Shown here: in pieces, positions 38,954 to 61,486 of the stretch
How the letters are laid out: each line of letters begins with the position of its first letter
How positions within the stretch are numbered: the first letter of the stretch is position 1
Assembly: GCA_964016885.1 (NCBI GenBank)
Contig: OZ024743.1
Location: 95,046,001-95,110,000, forward strand
Length of the DNA stretch: 64,000 nt
DNA from: Eledone cirrhosa
Taxonomy: Eukaryota
Reading direction: 5' to 3'
Translations under genes and position numbers: made by a program
The notes under the pieces: generated by a model
Database searches by the model: none
Seen by the model: only the letters and a program-made list of their open reading frames with translations
What the model was told of the DNA's origin: nothing

Positions 38954-40831
38954 ATGTTAAACGCAGCGAACGAAAATAGTGGTGGGGGGACAGCGGTAAG
39001 AGTTGCAAGCTCGCACGCTTTAGTCCTCCCTTCCTTCCCAACTAACGTCATAGAGAAGGAAGGAAAAATGAAAATAAAAACGGACGAATCTGCGGAGAAA
39101 AAATTAAATGACGAAAACAACGAAAAAAAAAAATTTGAAAAATTGCATGACAATACTAATAACACAAACAAAAACACAACAAACAAAAAAATAACAGTTG
39201 AAAATAACATCATATCAGAAAACAAAGCAGACGACAAGATTTCATTTGCACAGAAAACAAAGAAATCTTTGACTTATATAGCGGAAAACATTTCAGATGT
39301 GGTACGAAGGATCACGGACGCAAAACAATACATAAGTGAAGGTGAGAATGGTATTTTATTGGTAAAAATGCCTCAAGAATTCACGAAAGACATTGAAAGC
39401 CGAACGGTCAAGTTTCGGACCATCAACAACAGTACAAAAAAACCTGAACAGCCTTCTCAAGCAGATATCAAAACAGTACTCGCAGAAGTACTGAATGAAA
39501 CAACTTTCATAAGAAAAGACAGACTGTATGGAAGCCTAGCAATTATCATGAAGAACGAATCGGCGGCAAAAAAATGTGCTTTGTCACCGATTCGTTCGAA
39601 AAATTTCACCTTTTATCCATCTTATATGGGAAAAAAAACTCAACGCATATGGCTGGATGCAATGATGCCAGATGTGGACTACTGCTGGCTCATAGCTGGC
39701 TTCATCGATCCAGTGAATGACAACGTGATTTCCATTGGGAAAACCACAGGCAATGCGTTCAGTGGAACAGGTATAGAGCTGGTAGTACAAATGAAGCCTG
39801 AACGCATCGCCCAAATACCCGACAGAATCCTATTAGAGGACCACGGGTATATAAACATTAGCGTGGAGGGGAGAAGGCCGTCCTGCCATATCTGTGCAGG
39901 CAGAGGGCACCTGAAGGCCGCTTGTCCCCAACTCAACAAAAAGAAAACCCTGCTACCAACACCAGCTCCACCACCACCACCACAACAGATAAACAAACAA
40001 CAAAACTCAGTCCCACCCAACCCGTCCCTCAGTAACACCACAACACCACCACAACACAAACAGTCACAACACATTACCCCAAAACAAAATACAGGCCCAC
40101 CCAACCTCTCACTCAATAAAACAACACAACCACCGCAGACACAACACACAACACAGTCTAACATAGTGACATCCATCTCCCCCACAAAGAAAACCAACAC
40201 GGAAACATTACCAGCAAACATACCTCTTCCCTCCAACACTGAAGATAACCCAACGAATTCGGAGGAAGAAACGGAGTCCTTCAGACAGATTAAAAGGAAA
40301 AAAAGAAAACATGTGCAAAACACACAAGGACAAACAACCCCCACCCAAATCGCAACACAATCTAACAAAACAGAAAACACCCCTCCAGCAACAAACAAAA
40401 CCAAACCTGCCCCTCCCCTCTTCGAAACACTCACACCATCGGAAAAAAAGACATTACACTATACTTACATCAACAGAAACAATAATAAATTAAATGAACT
40501 CATATACAATAATCCTTCGGTACAAACCGAAGGTGTAAACTTTGTTTCATCAGAAAACCACCCACATTTAAAACTAATAAAAATCCCAATGAACCTCTAC
40601 CAAAAACTAAAAAAGGATTTTAAGGAGGACGTAGGACCACCCTCTGTCAAACCCATAAACCGCGTCCTACTAAAAAGCTTTCCCCCTCCCCTTCCCCTCC
40701 CCAACACAACTCCAAACACCCCAACCCCACCACACACCGACGACCACACACCACCACAAGACACCCCTTCACCCAACACCCCCGACCCCATGGAAGTCGT
40801 GCAACCCGAACCCCGGGAAGCGGAAAGGTAG
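38954..40831 (+). CDS. LINE ORF1p (RRM-like region, CCHC zinc knuckle, P/T-rich linker), 625 aa
   Basis: CHICAGRGHLKAACP knuckle, ISFA motif and KRKKRK; homologous to ORF1 of copies 2-4. Confidence 0.9.
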   Translation: MLNAANENSGGGTAVRVASSHALVLPSFPTNVIEKEGKMKIKTDESAEKKLNDENNEKKKFEKLHDNTNNTNKNTTNKKITVENNIISENKADDKISFAQKTKKSLTYIAENISDVVRRITDAKQYISEGENGILLVKMPQEFTKDIESRTVKFRTINNSTKKPEQPSQADIKTVLAEVLNETTFIRKDRLYGSLAIIMKNESAAKKCALSPIRSKNFTFYPSYMGKKTQRIWLDAMMPDVDYCWLIAGFIDPVNDNVISIGKTTGNAFSGTGIELVVQMKPERIAQIPDRILLEDHGYINISVEGRRPSCHICAGRGHLKAACPQLNKKKTLLPTPAPPPPPQQINKQQNSVPPNPSLSNTTTPPQHKQSQHITPKQNTGPPNLSLNKTTQPPQTQHTTQSNIVTSISPTKKTNTETLPANIPLPSNTEDNPTNSEEETESFRQIKRKKRKHVQNTQGQTTPTQIATQSNKTENTPPATNKTKPAPPLFETLTPSEKKTLHYTYINRNNNKLNELIYNNPSVQTEGVNFVSSENHPHLKLIKIPMNLYQKLKKDFKEDVGPPSVKPINRVLLKSFPPPLPLPNTTPNTPTPPHTDDHTPPQDTPSPNTPDPMEVVQPEPREAER

Positions 40832-40864
40832 GTCTCTACACTCTCCTTTGGCTCTGCCGCCCAC

Positions 40865-60700: not shown

Positions 60701-61222
60701 AACTTCCAGAGGTCCCTAGCCTGGCAGTGTTACCGGGGGGCTCTGCCCGTTCGAGAAAAGCTCTACAGACACGGGCGCCCGGGCAGGGATCCAGCGAAAA
60801 AGATCTGTCCCAGATGCGTGCGCGACGAGGAAACCGTTGCGCATGCACTGGTACACTGCCCGGGCGTTGCCGATCTGTGGGGCTACGTCGAACGACTGCT
60901 GTCGCGTGTGGCGCCGATTCGATTAACCGCCGAGTCTGTGGTGAACATCAAGCCGCCGCCTCCCTTCAGAAACGAAGCAGAGGCGGTCTTTCTGTGCGTA
61001 ATAGCCATGATGAAAGAGGTTGTGTGGTGGACGCGCCTGAAAGGTCTGAGGTCGGGTGACTTTCTCTCCGGCCATCACCTGGTTTACTTCTTCCGATACC
61101 ACTTCGGAAGAAGGATCAGGATGGAGAGAGAAGTGCTTGGCCCCAGACAGTTTTATGAAAGGTGGGTGAAAGAAGCGAGAATGGCTCGTGTAAATGGGCC
61201 TTCTCTCTACATTGTTCTGTAG
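57783..61222 (+). pseudogene. Disrupted LINE ORF2
   Basis: ATA at 57783 sits where ATG is expected; open 57792-59999 (YADD), stop at 59997-59999, frameshift near 60405. Confidence 0.88.
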
Positions 61223-61486
61223 GTGAAGAAGTGAAGAGGAAAGGGGGAGCGCCTCCTCTCTGGGCTACCCCCGCGAAAAGGGTTGCACACTTTTCGGGGG
61301 TATGTGCAATCCCGAACACGCCCCCTCCCTTTTGAGGACTTTTTATTATTATATTATTATTGTTATTCCTTTTTCTTTACTCGATTTATGTAAACTCCCC
61401 CACTGTGTATTTGTCCCCTTCTTTTGTGCCCTCGTGGCAAATAAATAGAAATTTATCTATCTCTCTTCACTGACACTCGCTCTCAC

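Follow-up and report, generated by a model that had tools for sequence, protein, structure and literature searches.

LINEs need far more ORF1p than ORF2p, a ratio that is thought to result from poor re-initiation on one unspliced RNA. HAL1 is known as an ORF1-only element. In Drosophila copia, an intron of about 3 kb that spans all of POL is spliced out, and in the plant copia element EVD, U1 acts independently of splicing, alongside splicing (both PMC5580714). The spliced gag RNA of copia and the shGAG RNA of plant Ty1/Copia elements (EVD, BARE1) have in common that a U1 site is conserved where the structural gene ends. These are single-ORF LTR elements, which require splicing for Gag alone, and their spliced RNA is proven. 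Among non-LTR elements, human L1 gives rise to SpORF2, where splicing removes ORF1 and retains ORF2 (PMC2896524), and to SpIREs, genomic copies spliced in the 5' UTR or the 5' UTR/ORF1 (PMC5860796), while TART has introns in its antisense RNA (PMC1636488). Families with ORF1 but without ORF2 occur at Drosophila telomeres (PMC13534243). Within the Tx1 group, Kibi targets (TC)n and Koshi targets (TTC)n (PMC4494074). The passages of PMC4494074 that treat splicing concern snRNAs, not splice sites of Tx1.

Here, we study a window of 64,000 nt from the genome of Eledone cirrhosa (GCA_964016885.1, contig OZ024743.1, positions 95,046,001 to 95,110,000), for which an earlier note had proposed that ORF2 of four tandem LINEs is one spliceable intron and that its removal leaves an ORF1-only mRNA. 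Such a layout would work like that of the copia gag RNA, and the splicing out of ORF2 would be new for a LINE: our literature search, which covered few subscription papers and no Repbase Reports, yielded no LINE described in this way. Differences to the known systems are evident. Unlike copia, the Eledone element has no LTR, its ORF1 has its own stop codon, and its splicing is proposed from the DNA sequence. Its two ORFs, APE endonuclease and microsatellite ends set it apart from Ty1/Copia. Human SpORF2 also belongs to a LINE with splice sites, but it is the reverse of the layout seen here, and TART is likewise a non-LTR element with introns, but on the antisense strand, whereas the candidate intron described here lies on the sense strand. 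Finally, HAL1 and the telomeric families are genomic elements that have lost ORF2, whereas the ORF1-only form considered here would exist as RNA alone. Copies of the SpIRE type were not found among those that we searched.

Layout and Identity of the Elements

The four LINEs are arranged head-to-tail on the plus strand (38745-61460), split by (ATCT)n. Copy 1 (family F1, 38745..44520) is full length, sits in (ATCT)n and has two intact reading frames. Its ORF1 (38954..40831) encodes a protein of about 625 aa that contains a CCHC zinc knuckle, and the ORF1 stop codon lies within a 5' splice site motif, termed D2 (40825..40835, GT at 40828, phase 2). A pyrimidine-rich spacer without AG (40834..40864) separates D2 from the ATG of ORF2 (40865..44302), which encodes 1145 aa comprising an APE endonuclease, an RT and a C-terminal zinc finger. 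The candidate intron of 3475 nt (40828-44302) would end at the ORF2 stop, in a putative 3' splice site (44282..44306, AG at 44301-44302), and a stop in the spliced ORF1 frame would follow at 44304-44306. An AATAAA directly precedes the microsatellite tail (44509..44514 in copy 1; also at 50390 and 61440).

Copies 2 and 3 both belong to family F2 and share 96-97% identity. Copy 2 (44575..50400) has an intact ORF1 (44790-46691) and a broken ORF2 (46725-50161), with D2 at 46684 in phase 1 and the acceptor at 50161, which has a rival AG 7 nt upstream. In copy 3 (50420..55700), D2 is located at 52549, again in phase 1, and the acceptor at 55459; its ORF2 carries a 546-nt deletion whose ends are not GT..AG. 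Copy 4 (family F3, 55742..61460) has D2 at 57748 in phase 0, the acceptor at 61222 and the stop of the spliced frame at 61232-61234. Copies 1, 2, and 4 are 78-82% identical over their aligned part, which is mostly ORF2 and 3' UTR. In accordance with the earlier note, all four donors, their phases (2, 1, 1, 0) and all four TAG acceptor sites were confirmed in place, and a purine-rich tract 3' of the acceptor is visible in the sequence.

ORF2 matches PF03372 (APE endonuclease) and PF00078 (RT) above the Pfam cut-off, while zf-RVT scores 26.9 bits, slightly below its cut-off of 27.5. The best solved relative of ORF2 is L1 ORF2p (E 3e-48), and R2 ranks behind. For ORF1, neither a homologue in the protein search nor a Pfam match was obtained; its knuckle has the pattern C-x2-C-x4-H-x4-C, and zf-CCHC look-alikes reach a score of 0.92. 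A single distant protein match (P0022) bears the name "Transposon TX1 uncharacterized protein". An (ATCT)n-type microsatellite is present at 10/10 3' ends of F1, and elements of the sister clade end in an (ATT)n microsatellite. Because L1 ORF2p is the best solved relative and the target is a microsatellite, the four copies are assigned by sequence to the Tx1-like LINEs of the L1 clade, as a new member of a known group. They share the APE-RT ORF2, the CCHC ORF1 and microsatellite insertion with Kibi, Koshi, and crocodilian Tx1, and differ in their targets, which are (ATCT)n and (ATT)n.

The group comprises more than 10,000 genomic copies: a pattern from the ORF2 end is matched exactly 10,483 times and one from the ORF2 start 11,288 times. 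For copy 1, the 36 best-scored relatives (of 6251 candidates) are nearly identical to it. For the comparative study, copies were fetched for diversity and 95 ORF2 starts were located. A tree built from the first 900 nt of ORF2 sorted 62 of these 95 copies into 19 subfamilies with 1-8 copies each, most of them old and broken; the other 33 were left out since their 3' end was not located, they looked chimeric or degraded, or they were redundant. Three copies (L082, L150, L152) appear to be recombinants, with ORF1 end, ORF2 start and 3' end derived from different subfamilies. Another six, of family FA, stand in tandem at G000:C1:4222700-4260000 (L049-L052). In place of a simple microsatellite, a longer repeat unit follows each of them, and FA seems to target a satellite of its own.

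Family F3 is peculiar in its ORF2 start. In every copy seen, ATA replaces the ATG of ORF2 (12/12 in one set; L170-L181, L191-L210). In the window, the ORF2 frame of copy 4 starts with ATA at 57783, the ORF1 stop overlaps this ATA (57783-57786), and the first in-frame methionine of ORF2 is codon 35. As 195 exact F3 ORF1 ends are present in the genome, the family would have spread either in trans or by initiating ORF2 at a codon other than AUG.

The Donor at the ORF1 Stop

D2 is conserved far beyond chance. A donor-like D2 is kept in 19/19 sampled subfamilies across three reading phases (12 subfamilies have it in phase 2, six in phase 1 and one in phase 0). Donor strength was taken as the pairing energy with the 5' end of the host's own U1 (L211). 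By this measure, D2 in the window is second of 292, first of 276 and first of 264 GT sites on the sense strand. In 15/19 subfamily representatives, D2 comes first or second among the GT sites on the sense strand, which number about 240, and the remaining four rank 3, 5, 8, and 14, the last being a mutated copy. A U1 site of -10 kcal/mol or lower lies within the 85 nt before ORF2 in 77/95 sampled copies, against a background of 1.5-3% of the element's 85-nt windows that contain a site as strong as D2. Among distant L1-clade relatives, drawn from metagenome contigs with 31 of 80 loci reaching the ORF2 start and hence scored, a strong donor precedes ORF2 in 1/31.

The spacer between D2 and ORF2 has a pyrimidine fraction of 0.70-0.95 in 19/19 representatives and is free of AG in 16/19. 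Although its flanks diverge, the stop codons differ and the spacer ranges from 19 to 46 nt, D2 persists in three phases, and its variants remain inside the U1-pairing donor consensus. Since D2 varies within this consensus and occurs in three phases of ORF1, protein coding cannot account for it. The comparison of subfamilies thus strongly supports that a 5' splice site at the ORF1 stop is under selection throughout the group.

Candidate Acceptor Sites and Stop Codons

On the acceptor side, the picture is more varied. ORF2 closes with TAG in 18/19 subfamilies; the exception is T2 with TAA. T2 is an abundant subfamily, as it accounts for 30 of the first 100 matches listed (out of the 11,288 ORF2-start matches), and some of its copies have an intact ORF1. 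In clade 1, F2, and T17, pyrimidine content places the terminal TAG in the top four of about 100-120 YAG sites in 11/12 representatives, the TD acceptor being ranked among only 25 YAG sites. The rank of the TAG falls to 4-9 in the T10/T16/T11 branch, where ties are frequent. Synonymous sites within the last 12 ORF2 codons reveal no special conservation (rank 567 of 1135), and a clear branch point was not seen by eye.

Spliced in silico, copy 1 retains its ORF1 protein unchanged, copies 2 and 3 lose one residue of ORF1, and in copy 4 three new residues replace twelve, in each case as had been claimed. Across the group, splicing to the TAG halts ORF1 within five residues in 13/19 subfamilies versus a shuffle mean of 7.7 (p 0.003), a count for which four deviant copies were removed beforehand and whose shuffle p-values ignore kinship. 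According to the tree, only about four changes of phase have occurred, and the position of the stop shifted once, between the two main clades. The phase-0 stop of F3 is also present in its sister F1, which is in phase 2 and has no need of it, and T17, T11, and T2 retain the phase-1 stop although their donors are in phase 2 and do not need it. The earlier note held a phase-matched stop placement to be hard to explain by chance. This claim is overstated, because the stop of copy 4 is found in a phase-2 sister family as well and 6/19 subfamilies fail the match at the ORF2-stop TAG.

The six subfamilies that miss the match at the ORF2-stop TAG are T5, T14, TD, T17, T2, and T11. In T5, T14, TD, and T17, an AG stands 7 nt upstream, straight after the pyrimidine tract, and with a phase-2 donor its use would let the stop of ORF2 itself be reused after two residues. 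For copies 2 and 3 (F2), use of the upstream AG would result in a tail of 46 residues. When any AG in the last 16 nt of ORF2 is allowed, all 19 subfamilies reach a prompt stop (shuffle mean 14.3), by a rule which, like the T2 acceptor described below, was identified post hoc from the misses, and which T2 and T11 pass solely through a weak GAG.

T2 and T11 offer a different solution. A long U-tract followed by CAG is located in their 3' UTR, 158-188 nt past the stop and 64-73 nt before AATAAA, and occurs in 15/16 3' ends of the T2/T11 type and in 0/9 of the sister T10/T10b/T16 type. In the latter, the aligned site is without AG, and the old acceptor is retained together with its matched stop. 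Splicing to the new 3' UTR acceptor would add 17-20 residues in T2, and 17 and 48 in T11. The gain is one evolutionary event, on a branch with both a change of phase and a decayed old acceptor, and gives the clearest hint that D2 requires a partner downstream of ORF2. Hence, the proposal that the acceptor coincides with the ORF2 stop agrees with the TAG that closes ORF2 in 18/19 subfamilies and fails where, as in T2/T11, the candidate site lies in the 3' UTR. An acceptor at the ORF2 stop is plausible but less secure than the donor.

Search for Spliced Products

According to the earlier note, splicing of the kind proposed could leave ORF2-less retrocopies. Exclusion-pattern searches in F1, F2, F3, T4/T5/T14, and T2, which addressed junctions other than those to the new T2 acceptor and to the upstream AG of F2, found no genomic copy that joins ORF1 to the 3' UTR. 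In F1, none of 849 3' UTR starts belongs to a spliced copy, and the lone pattern match is a plain 5' truncation (L011). Four matches were obtained for F2, none of which is an ORF1-to-3' UTR copy, and none at all for F3, the family with the 195 exact ORF1 ends. Searches with ORF1 ends gave one match of the T4/T5/T14 type and eight of T2, none spliced. On inspection, L012-L015 proved to be small deletions or duplications, L182 a one-base insertion, and L183-L190 short or microhomology deletions and rearrangements, so that all of them were rejected as retrocopies. A deletion near the F3 acceptor (L191) was rejected as a splice trace, its end not being at an AG. Among 20 internal deletions, not a single one has GT..AG ends. 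Contigs of unknown kind, from four of six sequencing runs, also align to copies 1 and 2, and the junctions 40827^44303 and 46683^50162 are absent among the 15 joints listed for them, which stand beside 177 more.

L1-type retrotransposition shows cis preference, as described in PMC5860796. The missing retrocopies argue only mildly against splicing, because an ORF2-less RNA would need to be copied in trans.

D1 and Other U1-Type Sites

A second donor motif, D1, is located in the 5' UTR (38805..38810 in copy 1; also at 44625 and 55805, and unmatched in copy 3). A GTRRGT motif occurs 24-89 nt from the start in 12/17 5' ends and is followed by U-rich sequence, and the 5' UTRs that bear it are otherwise unlike each other. 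Its pairing with U1 is weak (-5 to -9 kcal/mol). D1 is kept unspliced in 17/17 full-length F3 copies (20 were fetched), and copies spliced at D1 were seen neither among these 17 nor among the sampled 5' ends. A presumed 5' UTR acceptor approximately 90 nt past D1 was rejected, as it is a hairpin-like palindrome whose AG is absent in some families. Short palindromic hairpins and U-rich sequence are found 3' of D1 in most subfamilies.

Further U1-type sites were noted toward the end of ORF2. A strong U1-pairing site lies 60 nt before the ORF2 stop (44242, 50101, 61162), in one of the stretches of ORF2 with the highest synonymous conservation (codons 1122-1133), and the bases directly after the ORF2 stop look donor-like in several subfamilies.

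Possible Roles of the Donor

We consider it most probable, with a probability of roughly 0.55, that ORF2 is an alternatively spliced intron whose removal would give an ORF1-only mRNA. The selected donor at the ORF1 stop favors this reading of the earlier note; against it, the retrocopies were not found and the pairing of donor and acceptor has comparative support alone. The support for D2 being paired with an acceptor located where ORF2 ends or farther downstream consists of the pyrimidine rank of the TAG, the stops that follow the phase, and the new acceptor where the old one was lost. According to this model, U1 would bind D2, and a share of the transcripts would be spliced from D2 to such an acceptor, by which the entire endonuclease-RT gene would be removed. 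In the window families, the acceptor would be the ORF2-stop TAG, elsewhere the AG 7 nt upstream or the 3' UTR CAG of T2/T11. Unspliced RNA would provide ORF1p, ORF2p by re-initiation, and the template. The spliced RNA, with no ORF2, an ORF1 that ends at or near its normal stop and a short 3' UTR, would be the source of surplus ORF1p and would seldom be copied because ORF2p prefers its own RNA. The wider proposition, that the whole LINE lineage sets its ORF1p:ORF2p ratio by host splicing, keeping the donor and rebuilding the acceptor when it no longer fits, has about even odds in our estimate.

The main rival, which we regard as rather unlikely, takes D2, like D1, as an unpaired U1-binding site that guards the full-length RNA against early cleavage or decay, or aids its transcription or export, without splicing, while the TAG at the ORF2 end is merely an inherited stop codon. 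Such a role would fit a donor that is universal and an acceptor that is not, as well as the missing retrocopies, and is supported by D1, a motif of the same kind that remains unspliced in all full-length F3 copies. In many subfamilies, an AATAAA furthermore precedes D2 by about 250-350 nt, and a splicing-independent role of U1 is described for EVD (PMC5580714). However, 14/19 representatives have no AATAAA within ORF2, so that there would be little to protect downstream of D2, and both the phase-following stops and the new acceptor of T2/T11 are left unexplained. Moreover, U1 protection can operate together with splicing, as in EVD. A chance inheritance, or a signal for translation re-initiation with no role of U1, is far less credible still: all subfamilies descend from a single ancestor, and the motif shares bases with the ORF1 stop and is followed by a start context that is conserved, but neither circumstance accounts for a motif that survives three phases, different stops and varying spacers amid diverging flanks, with variants that stay within the U1-pairing consensus.

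Other uses of D2 as a donor are also conceivable. If D2 were spliced to acceptors inside ORF2, in host exons or in the next tandem copy, ORF1-only or truncated RNAs would arise without a clean product. In many subfamilies, the YAG sites located about 3020 and 620-630 nt upstream of the ORF2 stop score like the terminal one, and the copies are arranged in head-to-tail arrays. Yet the inner YAGs are coding, their tails of 2 to over 200 residues follow no pattern, and the internal deletions lack GT..AG ends, which makes this variant improbable. Least likely of all is that D2 opens a mini-intron of 39-66 nt, closed by an AG within the first ORF2 codons, whose removal fuses ORF1 to ORF2. The pyrimidine tract and the AG-free spacer 3' of D2 would suit it, and in 12/12 phase-2 subfamilies the first ORF2 AG at least 39 nt from D2 is in frame. 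However, an AGN codon is always in frame when the donor is in phase 2, T11 has an earlier spacer AG that is out of frame, and the first AG is out of frame in 7/7 other subfamilies. Furthermore, the absence of fused copies counts strongly against it, because a fusion RNA would be copied in cis and the searches, which were able to catch such copies, found none. With the frame failing in seven subfamilies and no fused copies, this proposal is largely refuted.

If the splicing model is correct, a LINE exploits the host spliceosome for stoichiometry, in convergence on copia and across a lineage of 10,000 copies. The host would thereby gain a handle, as more splicing would mean fewer jumps. Even without splicing of the elements, thousands of strong donors could trap host exons.

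Further Features of the Window

Across subfamilies, the lowest synonymous divergence in ORF2 is found at codons 521-540 and 561-581 (42425-42580), which is possibly due to an RNA element or to recombination between subfamilies. Downstream of the LINEs, a perfect 428-nt inverted repeat (61880-64000) flanks a minus-strand frame of 355 codons (62609-63676). The C-terminal part of this frame, which has no Pfam match, presumably resembles a GIY-YIG endonuclease, as judged by eye, and frame and inverted repeat together are possibly a Penelope-like fragment. Upstream, long minisatellite arrays occupy 7288-8183, 9532-11908, 13100-14954, and 26651-29641, with periods of 45, 20, 68, and 42-70, respectively. 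They yield stop-free frames, which are not genes, and the periods of the last array are apparently multiples of a 14-nt unit.
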